Assembly: GCA_000999315.1 (NCBI GenBank)
Contig: LCFW01000004.1
Span: 5,540 to 69,539, forward strand
Direction: 5' to 3'
DNA: 64,000 nt
Source: Candidatus Peregrinibacteria bacterium GW2011_GWF2_43_17
GTDB taxonomy: Bacteria; Patescibacteriota; Gracilibacteria; UBA1369; UBA12470
Below are positions 8,454 to 61,958 of the stretch, one piece after another. The notes under the pieces are model-generated. The model was not told the origin of the DNA and did not search any database. It saw only the letters and a list, made by a program, of their open reading frames with translations. Position 1 is the first letter of the stretch, and every line of letters begins with the position of its first letter. A program made the translations under genes and the position numbers.

Positions 8454-9672
8454 CGCGACCGATTCTCGAACCTCTACAATAAGCCGTCCCGCTAGGCGGG
8501 ACACCGCAATCGACTTTCTCGTCATCGGCTCGGGCGCCGCGGGCCTTAATTTCGCGCTATCCGCATCCAAATATGGCAAGGTTTTAGTGATAACCAAGAA
8601 GAAAATTTCCGATTCCGCAACAGAAAAAGCTCAAGGAGGAATTGCCGCAGTCCTAAATAAAAACGATTCGTTCACATCTCATATAAAAGACACACTCGTC
8701 GCAGGCCATTACAAGAACAAAAAATCGGCAGTCGAATATATTATAAAAAAAGGTCCGGCAGTCATCGCACACCTGAAAAAACTCGGAGTGAAATTCGACA
8801 AAGATTTACGCCGCGAAGGAGGACACTCTGCTCGCAGAATTTCTCACGTCGCCGACAACACGGGTAAAGCGATAGAAGACGCCCTCATCAAAGCTGTCAA
8901 AAAAAATCCGAACACCGAGATCCGCGAATACACGAAAGCCTTAAAAATAATCAAGAAAAACGGCTCGGCAATCGGCATAATCGCAAGCGATGAACAAAAA
9001 AATTGCACATACGAAATCCGAGCAAAAGCAATGATTCTCGCAACCGGCGGGATCGGTCAAAAATTCAAATCGACAACCAACCCGGAAATATCAACCGGCG
9101 ACGGCATCGACATGGCAAAAAAAATCGGCACACGCCTTGCCGACATGAATTACATCCAATTTCACCCAACAGTCTTAAACGCTCCGGGAACACCAAAATT
9201 CCTATTAACAGAAGCTCTTCGCGGAGAAGGCGCCAAAATCGTAAACGAAAAAAAAGAACGATTCATAAATGAACTTCTCCCTCGCGACACAATTTGCAAA
9301 GCAATGGAGAAACAGATAAAACAAGGTCATAAAATCTTCCTCGATTTCACGCACAAAAAAGCCTCTTACACCAAAAAAGCTTTTCCATACGTATATAAAA
9401 ATCTTAAAAAATACGACTTCGATCTGACAAAAGACCTTATCCCAATCGCACCAGCACAACACTATCTCTGCGGAGGAATCGCAGTTGACCTACAAGGCAG
9501 GACATCCATCCCGGGATTATATGCATACGGCGAAACAGCAAGGACCGGCCTTCATGGAGCAAACAGACTTGCATCAAATTCACTGTTAGAAGCAATTGCC
9601 ACAACTATGGAAACGCCAAACGGGATAGTCCGATATTTGTCTTCAAACCCTCTCGAATTTCGCACAAAATAA
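8419..9672 (+). CDS. nadB: L-aspartate oxidase-like flavoprotein, C-terminally short
   Basis: DFLVIGSGAAGL (FAD), AQGGIAAV, EGGHSARRI, TTNPEISTGDG, QFHPT, EALRGEGA and HGANRLASNSLLE motifs. The ORF stops about 25 aa after the last motif, so the usual C-terminal helical domain of about 90 aa is absent. Confidence 0.8.
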   Translation: MKSESSSRKVANATDSRTSTISRPARRDTAIDFLVIGSGAAGLNFALSASKYGKVLVITKKKISDSATEKAQGGIAAVLNKNDSFTSHIKDTLVAGHYKNKKSAVEYIIKKGPAVIAHLKKLGVKFDKDLRREGGHSARRISHVADNTGKAIEDALIKAVKKNPNTEIREYTKALKIIKKNGSAIGIIASDEQKNCTYEIRAKAMILATGGIGQKFKSTTNPEISTGDGIDMAKKIGTRLADMNYIQFHPTVLNAPGTPKFLLTEALRGEGAKIVNEKKERFINELLPRDTICKAMEKQIKQGHKIFLDFTHKKASYTKKAFPYVYKNLKKYDFDLTKDLIPIAPAQHYLCGGIAVDLQGRTSIPGLYAYGETARTGLHGANRLASNSLLEAIATTMETPNGIVRYLSSNPLEFRTK

Positions 9673-9676
9673 CATT

Positions 9677-10771
9677 TTACGCATCAGTCCCTCGTTTGTT
9701 CCCCACCATCCTCATCGCCTGATCCTCAATCGTCAATTTTTCAATCATATCCCCGATATTCCCATCCATAATCGAAGGAATATTGCTGAAATTCACATGG
9801 ATTCTGTGATCGGTAACCCTATCTTGAGGAAAATTATAAGTCCTGATTTTATCCGACCTGTCACCGGAACCGATTTGGCTTAGACGAGCCTCGCCAAGCT
9901 CTTTCTGACGTTTCTCTTGCTCTGCCGCATACAAACGCGACCTCAAAATGGACATCGCTTTAACCTTATTCTTAAGCTGAGATTTCTCATCCTGACATTG
10001 AACAACCAAACCGCTCGGCAAGTGAGTAATCCTAACAGCCGAATCGGTAGTATTGACACTTTGCCCTCCGCATCCACCGGATCTAAAAACATCAATTCTC
10101 AAATCCTGATCGCTTATCTTAATTTCAAGTTCTTCAACTTCAGGCAAAACAACAACAGAAGCGGTAGAGGTATGTATCCTGCCTTGAGCTTCTGTCGCAG
10201 GCACTCTTTGAACTCTGTGAACACCACTCTCATACTTCATCCGACCATAAGCTCCTTCTCCGTTAACCTTAAAAATAACTTCTTTAATACCATGATCGCT
10301 GTTACTCCTGCTCATCAACTCAACCTTAAACCTCTCTCTTTCAAGATACTTCATATACATCCTCATAAGCTCTTCGCCAAACATAGATGCCTCTTCCCCC
10401 CCCGTTCCGGCACGAATTTCAATAATACAATTCTTTTCATCGTTTGGATCTTTTGGTAAAAGTTCGACCTTTATTTGTTCTGAAAGTTTTTCGACCTGCT
10501 CTCTCGCACCCCCGAGCTCTTCTTTCGCCATCTCCCTCATCTCCTCATCATTTTCGGTCTCCAAAATACCCTCCGAACCGGCAATAATTTGGGACACCTT
10601 CTTAAACTCTTGAAAAAGAGCAACCACTTTCCCAAGTTCCTTATGCCTCCTGCCGGCACTGGCATATTCGCGAGAATTGGCAATCAACTTGGGATCACCA
10701 AGACCGGATTCGAGTTTCAGAAACTCGTCCTCGATTTCCTGCAACTTCTTTATGTGTAGTTCGTCAATCAT
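9677..10771 (-). CDS. prfA: Peptide chain release factor 1
   Basis: GGQ motif ([24 protein letters not shown]) and the RF1-type PAT tripeptide ([14 protein letters not shown]). Confidence 0.95.
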
Positions 10772-11886: not shown

Positions 11887-12192
11887 TTAAACTTTCTTAA
11901 AAACTCCTTTCATAAATCTCACCACATCTTCGCTCAAGGCATAAACTTTTCCTTCCACAACCCTGAGAATCGCGCAATCCACGTCATCCGAAAGATTGAT
12001 ATTTTCCTCAAAAACCCAGTGATCGCCTTTCATTCTTTTAAAAACATACGTCGCAATACCCTTTGATTTCTTATTCAACTTATCAATAAATTGCCTGAAT
12101 TCATCTGAAGTCGCAACAAACAAATCCTGAGACTCGCAAGCAGCCTCAAACACAAGCTCCTCATCGTCATTTAGATCGAAAACAAAATTCAT
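11887..12192 (-). CDS. Hypothetical protein (101 aa, acidic)
   Basis: Open frame only; no motif recognised. Confidence 0.4.
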   Translation of the reverse strand: MNFVFDLNDDEELVFEAACESQDLFVATSDEFRQFIDKLNKKSKGIATYVFKRMKGDHWVFEENINLSDDVDCAILRVVEGKVYALSEDVVRFMKGVFKKV

Positions 12193-12247: not shown

Positions 12248-12420
12248 CTAAAGGAACCTCTGAAAAATGTGGTTCCGTTACGAAATTCTCATTCTTTCGA
12301 GCGAAAATAGCGAAAACCGACGAAGTCGTCCCGCTTAGCGGGACGTCGAGGAGGTCTGAGCTGTTTGCAGCCGAAAGATGGGAATTGCAGTAGGAAGTAT
12401 GTTTTTCAGAGGTTCCCTAA
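12248..12420 (+). repeat. Palindromic intergenic element, copy E1 (173 nt, MITE-like or structured RNA)
   Basis: 15-bp perfect terminal inverted repeat GGAACCTCTGAAAAA/TTTTTCAGAGGTTCC, with imperfect pairing continuing inward. The arms 12253-12305 and 12345-12416 are 53/53 and 72/72 identical to the reverse complement of 50527-50579 and 50297-50368. TA lies on both flanks. It sits 30 nt downstream of the gyrB stop. Confidence 0.8.
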
Positions 12421-33481: not shown

Positions 33482-35260
33482 ATGTGCGGAATATTTGCCT
33501 ACTTAGGTCCAAAATCAAACTCGGCGCAAATTGTCCTCGAAGGACTTAAAAAACTCGAGTATCGCGGATACGACTCTTGGGGAATCGCATGCAGAAGGGA
33601 TTCCGGCGAAATCGTAATCGAAAAACACACGGGCAAAATTTCAGACGTTTCAAGTTTAAAAAAAGAGTTAACCGAAGAACCGGCACACATCGCAATCGGC
33701 CACTCAAGATGGGCGACCCACGGCGGCGTAACAGATATGAACGCACACCCGCACGCAAGCGAAGAAAAAGAAATAGTAATCGCACACAACGGAATTTTGG
33801 AAAACTACGAATCGCTCAAGAAAGATTTAATCGAAAAAGGTCATAAATTCGTCTCCGAAACCGATACGGAAGTTTTCGCACATCTGATTCAGGAAAACAT
33901 CGGCGAAGGATTTGAACAAGCTTTCAAAATCGCCCTCTCGAAAGGAGCCGGTCGTTATGCACTCATAGCCATCTCCAAAAACGAAGAAAAAATTCTAGCG
34001 GCTCGCAGAGGCTCACCACTGATCGTCGGCACCGGATCAGACGAATACTTCATCGCATCAGATATCCCCGCCTTCCTCAAATACACCAAAAAAGTGATGT
34101 ATTTGGATGATGATCAAATGGTTTCACTTGCAAAAGATGGAATCACATTCACCGACCTCAAAACAGACAAGAAAATAGAAAAACGCACGATAATAATAGA
34201 CTGGGATGAAAAAAGCGCGGAAAAAGGCGAATTCAAACACTTCATGCTAAAAGAGATAATGGAACAAAAGATGACCCTCACCCGAGCGATCAACCAAGAC
34301 GAAGAGAAAATCCTCGAAGTGGCGCAAGCGATAAAAACCGCTTACGGAACTTATATCGTAGGTTGCGGCACAGCCGGGAAAGTCGGCATGGTCGGAACAT
34401 ATCTTTTCTCGCATATCGCGCAAAAACACATCAACTTCATGTTCGGCTCGGAATTCTCAAGTTTTCTCCCGTTCATGAAAGATAAATCGCTCATGATCGC
34501 CATCTCGCAAAGCGGCGAGACGGCCGACACGCTTGAAGCTATCGAAGAGGCAAAGAAAAAAGGCGTGAAAATCGTCTCGATCGTCAACGTCGAAACTTCC
34601 ACGATGGCTCGCATCTCCGACATCGTAATCCCAATAAAAGCGGGTCCGGAAAAAGCTGTCGCCTCAACAAAAGCGACAACTTCTCAACTAGCGATTCTCA
34701 CTCTGCTCGCCTACGCGTGCGCCGGGAAACTCGACGAAGGCAAGCGCCTACTTGTCGCAACAGCAAGCCAAATCAACGACATGCTTAATCCGCGCTACGA
34801 AAATTACATCCGTGAAATCGCCGAGAAAATCCAAAACGTAGAAAGCATGTACATAATCGGTAAAGACTTAAACTATCCAATCGCCATGGAGTCAGCAATC
34901 AAACTTCAAGAAGTTTCGTACATCCACGCCGAAGGTTTCGCCGGAGGCGAACTCAAACACGGCCCAATCGCACTAATATCAAAAGGTACGCCTTGTATCG
35001 CAATCGTCGCCAATGACGAAACAAAAGCGGGAATAATTTCGAACGCAACGGAAATAAAAGCCCGCGGCGGTTACATCATCGGAGTCTCACCCGAGAACAA
35101 CTCTGTTTTCGATTTCTGGATAAAAGTCCCGGACGCCGGAATGGCATCTCCGATAGTCTCAATCATCCCAATCCAAATACTCGCTTACCAACTCGCCGTT
35201 TTACGCCAAAACAATCCCGATATGCCAAGAAATCTGGCGAAAAGTGTAACGGTTAAATAA
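33482..35260 (+). CDS. glmS: Glutamine--fructose-6-phosphate aminotransferase
   Basis: MCGIFAY (Ntn Cys), HSRWATHG, two SIS domains (SQSGETADT) and the C-terminal LAKSVTVK-type end. Confidence 0.95.
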
Positions 35261-36092
35261 ACACCCTGAGATTTTTGCTTCGTTTTTCATGCCTCAATTT
35301 ACGCAAAGCCTTCATTTCTATTTGACGAATCCTTTCACGAGTCAAATGAAACCGCTTCCCTATTTCCTCAAGAGAATATGTACACGGCTCGCCTATCCCA
35401 AACCGCAACTTCGTAACGGTTTCTTCCACCGGCGTAAGCTTCGACAAAGCTTCCTCAAGATTACCTCTCAACTCCGCTTGCGTGGAATCCAAATCAACCT
35501 TTCCCGCATCCGAATCTTCAACAAAATCTCCAACCGTATTCCGACCACCCTCTTCCATAGGCGCATCAAGAAACACGACCCCGCGATCCCATACCATAAA
35601 CTGACTAACCTCATCCGCCTCCATCTCAAGCTTGTCGGCGATCTCCTTATTGGTCGGCTCTCGTCTCAAATTTCGACATAACTCTTCCCGCGCCCGATAA
35701 ATCTTATTAACAACTTCAAGTTTATATGGAGGTATTCTAATGTGCCTCGCTTGCGACTCGATAGCCCTCACGATTGTCTGACGAATCCACCAAGTCGCAT
35801 AAGTTGAGAATTTCACGCCCCTTCTATAATCAAATTTTGTCACAGCTCTAATCAAACCTAAATTCCCCTCCTGAATAAGATCGGTCAACGGCAATCTGCG
35901 ACCGATATATTTTTTCGCAATACTGACAACCAATCTCAAATTCGCATTAATCAAAATTTGTTTGGCTATTTCCGCATCCGGTCCACCCGCCGCAATTCTG
36001 CGCGCAACTTCAATTTCATCCTCACGATTTAAACGAGAAACTTGTCCCATATTCCGCAAATACCTATTAAGCACCATCTCACCGTTTCTCAT
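35253..36092 (-). CDS. Sigma-70 family RNA polymerase sigma factor (second, short RpoD-like paralogue)
   Basis: Regions 2-4 are present: [40 protein letters not shown], and the region 4 motif [10 protein letters not shown]. At 279 aa it has no region 1.1. Confidence 0.85.
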
Positions 36093-50007: not shown

Positions 50008-50063
50008 CATTGAGTGACTCTGCAACGCTACGGAAAGCGAAGCTTTAGTGAATCAACACCAGG

Positions 50064-50132
50064 TTTTTTGTGTTGTCTCGAGCAACTCCACAGCGCTACC
50101 GTTCCATGCTCCAAGAGAGACAACACAAAAAA
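50064..50132. repeat. 16-bp perfect inverted repeat with 37-nt spacer, abutting the tRNA-Arg 3' end
   Basis: TTTTTTGTGTTGTCTC (50064-50079) pairs with GAGACAACACAAAAAA (50117-50132). Confidence 0.6.
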
Positions 50133-50134
50133 AC

Positions 50135-50211
50135 TGGTGCGCCCGGAGGGAATCGAACCCACAACCCCCGGTTCCGAAGACCGGTGCTCTATCCAATTGA
50201 GCTACGAGCGC
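50135..50211 (-). tRNA. tRNA-Arg (anticodon UCG), CCA encoded
   Basis: The reverse complement is GCGCTCG-TA-GCTC-AATTGGATA-GAGC-A-CCGGT-CTTCGGA-ACCGG-GGGTT-GTGGG-TTCGATT-CCCTC-CGGGCGC-A-CCA. It folds as a cloverleaf with one G-U in the acceptor stem and one T-T mismatch in the T stem. Confidence 0.88.
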
Positions 50212-50292: not shown

Positions 50293-50583
50293 CTAAGGAA
50301 CCTCTGAAAAACATACTTCCTACTGCAATTCCCATCTTTCGGCTGCAAACAGCTCAGACCTCCTCGACCAGGCTGTCCGACAATGAACTTTTTTAAGAAA
50401 ACGCATTGTTTTTAAATTTGCTTAATAATTCGCAATGCTTTTTGCTATCTGTTGCACAGAATAACATTTTACGCGTCAATCCTTCGCTTGTTTAGGACCG
50501 TCCTCCAATTTCATTGTCGGACGGTCTTCGCTCGAAAGAATGAGAATTTCGTAACGGAACCACATTTTTCAGAGGTTCCCTAG
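50293..50583 (-). repeat. Palindromic intergenic element, copy E2 (291 nt; inverted relative to E1, different and larger core)
   Basis: The arms 50297-50368 and 50527-50579 are 100% identical to the reverse complement of the E1 arms. The 158-nt core (50369-50526) is unrelated to the E1 core and is bounded by its own 13-bp inverted repeat, GTCCGACAATGAA (50375-50387) / TTCATTGTCGGAC (50510-50522). TA lies on both flanks. The right end supplies the last four codons and the stop of the 729-aa ORF. Confidence 0.8.
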
Positions 50584-60004: not shown

Positions 60005-60622
60005 CTAGAAGATCTTCGCAATTTTGCATTTGATCTTCCCGGCAGGCACAACGACATCAACTGTATCCCCTGTTTTATGCCCCATAATTGCATTGCCTAT
60101 TGGGGATTCGTTGGAAATCCTGTTTGCCATCGGATCAGCCTCGGTTGAACCAACTATCGTATACTCTTCGTTATCACCTTCTTTTCCTGCCTTAATAATT
60201 CTTAAAACAACTTTCGTACCCAAATTTACAACTTTTGTACCCGGTTTGTCTTTTTTTTCGGAAATAACTTTGGCATGCTTTACCTTCTCTTCAAGTTCTC
60301 TGATTCTGCCTTCAACGAAAGCTTGCTCATTTTTAGCCTCTTCATATTCGGCATTCTCGGAAAGATCACCATAAGAAATCGCTTCCTTAAGCCTTTGTGC
60401 AACCTCTCTTCTGCGAGTCGTCTTTAAATGTTCAAGTTCGTCCCGAAGTTCTTTTAAACCTTCCCTGGTAACATAAACAACCTCGTCACCATCGATAGAA
60501 ACTACGGGATCGCCAGTAGTAACATCATCATCTCCAAAACTGGCAGAAGAACTATCGGCCGGATCTTCTTCATCCGTAAAATCATCATCGCCCCATCCCG
60601 TATTTGCAAGAATCAATGTCAT
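60005..60622 (-). CDS. greA: Transcription elongation factor GreA with acidic N-terminal extension
   Basis: [17 protein letters not shown]...[27 protein letters not shown] (coiled-coil finger) plus the C-terminal FKBP-like domain. The ATG at 60622 is preferred because the longer track ORF runs into the E3 repeat arm. Confidence 0.88.
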
Positions 60623-60640: not shown

Positions 60641-60810
60641 TAAAAGACGTCTGCAAAAGTACAATTTTAATACGAAATATGCAATCTTTGAGCGAAAATA
60701 ATGAAGCGCGACGAAAACGTATCAGGGAAAGATACGATGAGAAGCGATGAATTATTTGTAGCCAAAGAGTGCATATTGCAGTAAAAAAGGTACTTTTGCA
60801 GACGTCTTAG
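60641..60810 (+). repeat. Palindromic intergenic element, copy E3 (170 nt; diverged homologue of E1/E2)
   Basis: 19-bp perfect terminal inverted repeat AAGACGTCTGCAAAAGTAC (60644-60662) / GTACTTTTGCAGACGTCTT (60790-60808). It shares internal blocks with E1 (TACGAAAT, CTTT(C)GAGCGAAAATA, CGACGAA, TTTG(C/T)AGCC(G)AAAGA, ATTGCAGTA) in the same order and spacing. The rpoD stop codon lies in its right end. Confidence 0.7.
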
Positions 60811-61958
60811 TTGTCTTTTATACGAACGCTGGTCGGATGCTCGCGAAGTTTCTGAAGAACTTTCGCTTCAATTTGTCTAATTCTTTCTCTTGTAACACCA
60901 AACTCCTTCCCAACCTCTTCAAGAGTGTGGCCGATACCATCTTTAAGCCCGAATCTCATCTCAATAATCTTTCTCTCACGAGGAGAAAGATATTGAAGCA
61001 TATCATGAATATTTTCCTTAATTAACTGCTTATTTGTTAAATCCGCCGGAGAAAGCGCGTCGTCATCTTCAATAAAATCTCCAAGCTTACTATCTTCTTC
61101 GGCACCAACCGGAGCCTCCAAAGAAACTATATCCTGAGAAATTTTCAAAACATGTCGAACCTTCTTGATATCCATACTCATTTCAGCCGCCAACTCTTCG
61201 ATCAAAGGCTCACGACCAAGCTCTTGTACAAGCCTTCTTTGCGTATGCGTAAGCTTGTTGATAGTCTCAACCATGTGGACCGGAATACGAATCGTCCTGG
61301 CTTGATCGGCAATGGCGCGAGTAATCGCCTGCCTAATCCACCAAGTTGCATAAGTTGAAAACTTAAAACCTCTGTCCGGATCAAACTTTTCAACAGCCCT
61401 GAACAAACCTATATTTCCTTCTTGTATAAGATCCAAAAAAGAAAGACCTCTACCAATGTATTTTTTCGCAATACTGACAACAAGTCTCAAGTTCGCCTCG
61501 GCAAGCGCCTTTTTGGCAGACTGATCGCCTTTCTCAATCCTTCGCGCAAGTTCAGCCTCTTCTTTCGCAGTAAGCAACTTAACTTTCCCTATTTCACAAA
61601 GATACATCCTTATCGAATCGTTCGCTATTTCCTGAAGTTGAATTTGTCTATCAGCCTCTTCGGTTGCCGCCTCTTCAGCTCCATCATCTTGTATTAAAAG
61701 TTCATCTTCCTTGGCGTTATCGCCCCAAATCATGGAGTCCTTAACATCCATAACTTTTATACCCAAATCCATGAAAACGGCATAAATCTCATCGAGAAGC
61801 ATGACGTCCTCCTCAACCGAAGGAACAGCCTTAACAAGCTCCTGATGCGTTACAAAACCGCGCTGCTTGCCTTTTTCAATAAGAGCACGGACCTCAGGCG
61901 GAAACTTAGCCAGTTTCTCGTCGGAGATACCGGTAATAAATTTTCTCGTTCTTGCCAT
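60807..61958 (-). CDS. rpoD: Primary RNA polymerase sigma factor
   Basis: Regions 1.2-4.2 are present: [69 protein letters not shown], and the region 4 motif [10 protein letters not shown]. It lies immediately downstream of dnaG. Confidence 0.93.

Follow-up and report, generated by a model that had tools for sequence, protein, structure and literature searches.

Three long palindromes lie at gene ends in the 64,000-nt stretch of Candidatus Peregrinibacteria DNA analysed here (the window), and the question they raise is what kind of sequence they are: mobile DNA, structured RNA with a host function, or an artefact of assembly. The present study suggests, with a probability that we put at roughly 0.8, that the element is a non-autonomous transposon (MITE). 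E1, E2 and E3 form one palindromic family with three copies in the window, exactly the three that a covariance-model scan without filters returns. As a MITE, it is a previously undescribed family of Peregrinibacteria, of a well-known general kind. The copies and their parts are as follows.

12248 to 12251, unstranded: CTAA direct repeat left of E1, with one extra A between repeat and element
12253 to 12416, plus strand: E1, the full 164-nt copy, top strand on plus (covariance model R1: 177 bits on plus, 56 bits on minus)
12253 to 12276, plus strand: left terminal inverted repeat of E1, the 5′ side of the outer stem, pairing with 12393 to 12416
12279 to 12286, plus strand: conserved motif TACGAAAT, 5′ side of internal loop 1 (GA facing GCA), invariant in all full-length members
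12299 to 12309, plus strand: conserved motif GAGCGAAAATA, 5′ side of internal loop 2
12318 to 12324, plus strand: conserved CGACGAA, 5′ side of the purine-rich internal loop closest to the hairpin tip
12328 to 12344, plus strand: tip hairpin of E1, GTCCCGCTTAGCGGGAC, unlike the family's usual CGTATC...GATACG tip
12348 to 12353, plus strand: conserved GAGGAG, 3′ side of the internal loop closest to the tip
12364 to 12372, plus strand: conserved TTTGCAGCC (TTTGYAGCC in the family), 3′ side of loop 2
12384 to 12392, plus strand: conserved ATTGCAGTA, 3′ side of loop 1
12393 to 12416, plus strand: right terminal inverted repeat of E1, the 3′ side of the outer stem
12417 to 12420, unstranded: CTAA direct repeat right of E1
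50293 to 50296, unstranded: CTAA flank of E2, the same as the other flank at 3 of 4 bases
50297 to 50579, minus strand: E2, in opposite orientation, with arms identical to those of E1 and a central insert (91.6 bits on the minus strand)
50369 to 50526, minus strand: the central insert of E2, 'Ins160', 158 nt, with its own inverted ends GTCCGACAATGA
50569 to 50571, minus strand: stop codon (TGA) of the gene for a 729-aa SLH protein, inside E2
50580 to 50583, unstranded: CTAG flank of E2
60645 to 60807, plus strand: E3, a diverged 163-nt copy between rpoD and greA (183.8 bits)
60807 to 60809, minus strand: rpoD stop codon (TAA), which shares the last base of E3

A sequence-only reading of the window had described palindromic elements and, in E1 and E2, shared arms in opposite orientation, and the repeat finder confirms both: the 53-nt arm at 12253–12305 is 100% complementary to 50527–50579, and 12345–12419 is 99% complementary to 50294–50368, with 72 nt within the element identical. 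The 15-bp perfect terminal stem that it reported is also present, the first 15 nt of E1 (GGAACCTCTGAAAAA, 12253–12267) having their exact reverse complement at 12402–12416. E2 is a copy of E1 in its arms only; the 158-nt insert occupies its centre, and the core has also lost 24 nt, so that E2 is probably a defective copy. E3, proposed as a diverged third copy, is one, with bounds at 60645–60807 and the orientation of E1. Its sequence has diverged, short invariant motifs being common to both copies and the stems between them changed on both sides, and it is an older copy. Across the family the element is 158–164 nt long, or 222–283 nt with nested inserts, and its terminal inverted repeats, of ~24 nt, start with GG. 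It encodes no protein, its ORFs being short and non-conserved. A conserved small ORF was considered and rejected: an ATG after GAGCGAAAATA is confined to some subfamilies and belongs to a stem, with which it covaries.

That the palindromes are a non-autonomous mobile element was one candidate interpretation of the sequence-only reading, and it is borne out by near-identical copies at unrelated loci, by target duplications and by a precise empty site. A young subfamily comprises eight copies that differ at 0–5 of 164 nt and stand in unrelated flanks, next to genes for a GNAT acetyltransferase, RF-1, DUF192, a transketolase and others; its terminal repeat is common with E1 and its inner stems are different. 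Multiplication of the element is recent in at least one lineage. Perfect adjacent 4-nt direct repeats (ATAA, TCTA, TTAG, TTTA twice, TAGA, ATTA and TGAG) are found at 8 of the 19 loci, from all subfamilies, that have both flanks. Two further loci match with a 1-nt offset (E1, CTAA; L087, TAAG) and three more at three of four positions (E2, L055 and L098); by our own estimate, a 4-nt match in AT-rich flanks has a chance of ~0.01 per locus. The E1 subfamily (E1, E2 and L087) lacks clean adjacent 4-nt duplications and has the offset or three-of-four matches.

The empty site lies at rpoD. The order dnaG–rpoD–greA is kept in relatives, and in the closest of them (GreA 87% identical) the rpoD–greA spacer aligns on both sides of E3, lacks E3 and is shorter by exactly 167 nt, that is, 163 + 4. 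Two more distant relatives are also without E3. Downstream of gyrB, relatives with GyrB 84–94% identical carry no copy, the spacer being too diverged for a precise junction. These empty sites came via GreA and GyrB homologues; the retrieved loci that carry copies yielded none. From the direct repeats and the empty site it follows that insertion produced a 4-bp target duplication. The element inserts into very short AT-rich spacers at gene ends, of which 4 bp are duplicated. The TA flanks previously noted on E1 and E2 are instead CTAA on both sides of E1, with the 1-nt offset on the left, and CTAA and CTAG for E2. An IS630/Tc1-mariner origin with TA duplication, suggested from those flanks, is not supported, the duplication being 4 bp and variable, with TA mostly not abutting the element.

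The insertions bear closely on gene ends. The earlier statement that all copies lie at or within 30 nt after a stop codon was right in placing them at gene ends and wrong in the distance, since E1 is 34 nt away from the gyrB stop codon and the SLH stop lies inside E2. The terminal repeat of E2 provides the last codons and the TGA stop of the gene for the 729-aa SLH protein. At rpoD, the closest relative, which lacks E3, encodes an RpoD with the same final residues as that of the window, and the target duplication therefore restored the rpoD stop codon. Several further copies lie 0–14 nt from stop codons, and copies occur in both orientations relative to adjacent genes with no consistent bias. 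Separately, the GreA ORF beside E3 (60005–60622) is 205 aa long here and in the closest relative, compared with 163–172 aa in most other Peregrinibacteria, and reflects either an N-terminal extension particular to the lineage or an over-called start. E3 is not its cause, since the longer ORF is also present in the relative without E3.

The family extends beyond the window. The exact core pattern scanned, TACGAAAT-N(9-15)-GAGCGAAAATA, gives mostly chance matches: only three of its 35 matches in genome contigs are true members (L006, L007 and L030), from two Peregrinibacteria genomes and one low-GC bacterium, and in metagenome contigs it returned 98 DNA stretches. A covariance model built on four members (E1, E3 and two GTDB Peregrinibacteria copies) recognizes ~22 distinct members among window-related and metagenome contigs, several contigs carrying two or three, and the proposed family thereby gains its further copies in other contigs. 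Every true match is a short element and, contig-end-cut copies aside, none ends a longer gene-bearing one. The family is restricted to some Peregrinibacteria. blastn of E1 against plasmid and phage records gave no match, and in viral contigs the core pattern and the terminal repeat gave only single chance-like matches. Comparison with Rfam, which the sequence-only reading had named as the check on novelty, matched no known family: at the gathering threshold the whole window holds only a tRNA, and in E-value mode nothing relevant appears at E1 and E3 even at E = 10. A more distant hairpin element of ~158 nt was observed at L065:4307-4464 (46 bits with the family model), with ends GCGTGTTTAAGAAATG and CTAG on both sides; it suggests that the 4-bp duplication is common to a wider superfamily.

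In agreement with the sequence-only reading, no transposase was found in the window from 2.4 to 64 kb among precomputed Pfam hits of called genes, nor does one adjoin the tested copies, whose neighbours are housekeeping genes or genes of uncharacterized function. An autonomous partner with matching terminal repeats was sought in the window, in ~1 Mb of retrieved loci and in pattern-selected contigs, and none was found. Among long-range inverted repeats in all true-member loci there is only an IS4-family element, whose ends are unrelated. This insertion sequence (L102:8232-9544) encodes a 390-aa protein with PF01609 and DUF4372, is bounded by perfect inverted ends of 21 bp (CACTAGTGTCCCAAGAAAGTT) with a duplication of 9 bp (TTTGTAAGT), and shares its Peregrinibacteria-like metagenome contigs with the young subfamily. 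An HTH protein encoded between two copies in L132 was considered as a recombinase and rejected by Pfam.

A DDE transposase acting in trans, with cuts staggered by 4 bp, may move the element; its gene would lie elsewhere in the genome or have been lost. Judged from established family descriptions, IS5- or IS701-like families would be the best fit for such an enzyme, because of the 4-bp duplication and the GG termini. Members of the IS5 and IS701 families have a 4-bp target duplication, often with TA (YTAR-like), and ends that start with GG (ISfinder descriptions). The CTAA, CTAG and TTAG sites of the element are YTAR-like; its TCTA, ATAA and TGAG duplications, however, do not fit YTAR, and no such transposase with matching ends was found in the searched loci. 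We know of no requirement for a whole-element hairpin in either family.

The general anatomy is reminiscent of the bacterial MITEs, including Correia/NEMIS of Neisseria, ERIC/IRU and RUP, reviewed in PMC3184786. The element shares with them a length below 200 bp, the lack of a transposase gene, terminal inverted repeats, flanking target duplications, an intergenic position at gene ends, a fold into one long stem-loop, near-identical copies, and presence or absence between relatives. It differs in lacking sequence similarity (Rfam, plasmids, phages), in a duplication that is 4 bp and variable rather than TA, in internal loops that are more conserved than the terminal repeats, and in a host that belongs to the candidate phyla radiation. 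A precedent of similar size is bcr1 of the Bacillus cereus group (~155 bp), which has short direct repeats, is patchy between close strains and keeps its structure by compensatory changes (PMC3184786). Like the element, bcr1 is a non-autonomous mobile repeat with direct repeats at its flanks. In contrast, its direct repeats are 5 bp and its fold is cruciform-like with two stems, compared with 4-bp repeats and a single long hairpin here; its sequence and host are unrelated, and its transcription has been shown. In the searchable literature we found no description of a MITE from Patescibacteria or from the candidate phyla radiation, and the Peribacteria genome paper makes no mention of such repeats.

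The hairpin shape of the family is unusually well conserved. E1 folds as RNA at −88.1 kcal/mol (z = −10.9 compared with shuffled sequences) and E3 at −69.8 kcal/mol (z = −12.6); the opposite strands reach −68.8 and −63.9 kcal/mol, respectively, so that the top strand is better by 6–19 kcal/mol. In an 18-member alignment, 95% of cells are standard pairs and 40 of the 61 pairs have changed on both sides, values that 0 of 500 shuffles reach, while slid partners pair at 36–49%. Covarying pairs make up 22 of 26 in the terminal repeats and 9/16, 6/12 and 3/7 in the inner helices. Compensatory changes preserve the single long hairpin over the full length of the element and not just at its termini. 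The young copy in L102 has only two differences from its master, and these constitute a compensatory change of a G-C to an A-T pair in the terminal repeat.

The helices are separated by asymmetric loops that are nearly invariant: UAC-GA-AAU facing AUU-GCA-GUA, GC-GA-AAAU facing AUUU-GYA-GC, GAA facing UGA and GACGAA facing GAGGA. By inspection, every one of these purine-rich loops admits a reading as tandem G·A pairs, to which the first two add a bulged pyrimidine; the opposite strand would have pyrimidine-pyrimidine mismatches at these positions. The G-U pairs that had been taken to favour the strand as written do so family-wide: G·U exceeds A·C cells by 56:5 on one strand of the 18-member alignment, and by ~22:4 in our own count with each of nine lineages counted once. 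Many rows of the alignment come from one young subfamily, and the cell counts overstate independent events because these rows are closely related; the pair-level measures are less affected. Moreover, the terminal repeats are more variable between subfamilies than the internal loops. In MITEs the reverse is usual, terminal repeats being less variable than the interior.

To our knowledge, ordinary DDE transposition needs neither a whole-element hairpin nor conserved asymmetric loops nor a strand bias, and part of the anatomy is thus unexplained by a DDE mechanism. To multiply, a copy may require its better-pairing strand in folded, single-stranded form, whether DNA or RNA, possibly for recognition by the mobilizing enzyme or by a host factor. 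Taken further, the hairpin with its tandem G·A loops would be the substrate of an undescribed structure-recognizing mobilization pathway that leaves a 4-bp duplication, the substrate then being a folded single-stranded DNA or an RNA intermediate, or else it would be a mobile structured RNA with a cellular role in genomes as reduced as these. We regard this reading as improbable, although it would fit the covarying terminal repeats with fixed loops, the compensatory pair of L102 and a set of seven substitutions that are all G to A. The latter are the 7/7 single substitutions, relative to the subfamily master, in L096, L085 (1477-1652), L098 and L132 (6055-6230); they are G to A on the better-folding strand in any genomic orientation, with a probability of ~0.03 by a rough estimate that assumes substitutions proportional to G and C content, and the sample is too small to interpret.

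About equally improbable is that the element is in the first place a structured RNA (a small RNA gene, or a cis-acting hairpin that stabilizes or terminates mRNA 3′ ends) with a host function to which mobility is secondary or ancient. Strong covariation along the entire hairpin, nearly invariant internal loops and the G·U excess on one strand all suit such an RNA, and copies 0–35 nt from stop codons would be transcribed by read-through. In addition, Correia and bcr1 MITEs are transcribed and affect transcripts (PMC3184786). A strand-specific mRNA element should, however, be biased in orientation, and among copies between co-directional genes the better-folding strand is sense in 3 and antisense in 6; this mixed placement makes a strand-specific role within neighbouring mRNAs unlikely. 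No promoter was found inside E1 and no terminator-like site was detected at E1, a single promoter-like match lying just outside it and directed at the next gene. Relatives are without the element at the rpoD and gyrB loci, and these genes therefore do not need it; in E2, moreover, part of the conserved core has been lost. The absence of an Rfam match also argues against a structured RNA of known type, including the stand-alone 6S-like RNA that had been put forward. The element shares with 6S RNA a hairpin of ~170–180 nt with internal loops, but it matches no Rfam 6S model, is multi-copy and mobile, is found in either orientation and is absent in close relatives.

Less likely still is that the element, read here as a MITE, moves as single-stranded DNA by means of an HUH enzyme of the REP/REPIN-RAYT or IS200/IS605 kind, the folded top strand being recognized. 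A hairpin with conserved extrahelical or mismatched bases and a preference for one strand are hallmarks of folded-strand recognition, and the intergenic hairpin repeats of these systems likewise have conserved mismatches or bulges and one folded strand that matters; that no DDE partner was found points the same way. REP/REPIN-RAYT and IS200/IS605-derived elements, however, come with a cognate HUH gene, insert beside a tetra- or pentanucleotide of fixed sequence and cause no target duplication. The flanking 4-mers of the element, in contrast, are duplicated and variable, the empty site lacks 4 nt more than the element itself, and no RAYT, TnpA or other HUH gene is present among the called genes of the window or beside the copies. 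Its 164 nt with 24-nt terminal repeats also differ from REP units of 20–40 nt. An integron attC site was rejected by inspection: attC sites have R″/R′ cores (RYYYAAC ... GTTRRRY) in a gene-cassette array beside an integrase, and the element has ends GGAACC...GGTTCC, housekeeping neighbours and no integrase.

Finally, that the repeats are artefacts (assembly duplication, a chimera or chance palindromes) is so improbable that it can be set aside. One contig, L068, does run from the left flank of copy L108b into the right flank of copy L064, either by recombination between copies or as an assembly chimera across the 164-nt repeat. The E1 locus, however, shows no difference among eight independent assemblies drawn from ENA, NCBI, JGI and Logan, which excludes assembly duplication. 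Every contig with an identical GyrB beside E1, including LCGT01000006.1 of NCBI GCA_000999965.1, carries E1; a second genome record has E2 and E3 as well; and chance is excluded by the z-scores and the covariation.

The genomes of candidate-phyla-radiation bacteria are very small, and the family documents recent transposition in one group of them, the Peregrinibacteria. It is of note for its host phylum, for its recent activity and for a hairpin specific to one strand and better conserved than the terminal repeats, which makes it a tractable case for asking what a miniature transposon needs beyond terminal repeats to multiply. The element also offers a ready marker of insertion polymorphism in groundwater populations. 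Gene ends have been reshaped by it, the SLH gene taking its stop and last codons from E2 and the rpoD stop being abutted by E3, and recognizing the family avoids its misannotation as small RNAs, terminators or assembly errors.

Replacement of the hairpin tip, and inserts nested in it, may be tolerated, as E2 and a strain variant of E1 illustrate. In assembly L038 the E1 locus carries an E2-type insert (12018-12176, 99% identical) in place of the 17-nt tip hairpin, and the tip is thus polymorphic within the population. Within the E2 insert, 52 nt are 81% identical to the 3′ end of prfA (9662-9713), where prfA and a FAD-binding gene have convergent ends, and are co-linear with the last prfA codons and the same stop (RTVLNKRRIDA and stop in one of the two). 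The insert looks like a captured gene-end fragment. No closer match to it was found in the prfA regions of relatives, and a check of its coding potential gave nothing convincing. Exactly at the prfA/FAD-binding gene junction of a relative (L187:5610-5660) there is a perfect 44-nt palindrome, GAACTGATAATTATTAGCCACTAGTGGCTAATAATTATCAGTTC, where the gene ends of the window overlap.

Other repeats were observed as well. In the window, a 23-bp inverted repeat (50057-50139; 96% complementary, 37-nt spacer) sits between the end of the SecDF gene and a tRNA gene (50138-50211, minus strand) and is probably a shared terminator hairpin with no relation to the element family. A second sigma-70 family gene, of 279 aa, lies at 35253-36092 and is shorter than rpoD (60807-61958); a 173-nt stretch is 73% identical between the two (35773-35945 in the shorter gene, 61324-61496 in rpoD). 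A different module of two hairpins, ~60 nt long, is nested in two element copies (module and relative: L108:1170-1230, L096:14421-14465, L102:2331-2388). The relative of this module, from the same metagenome, immediately follows a tRNA gene, is 83% identical and has compensatory changes in both hairpins, and the module may represent a second small structured repeat family.
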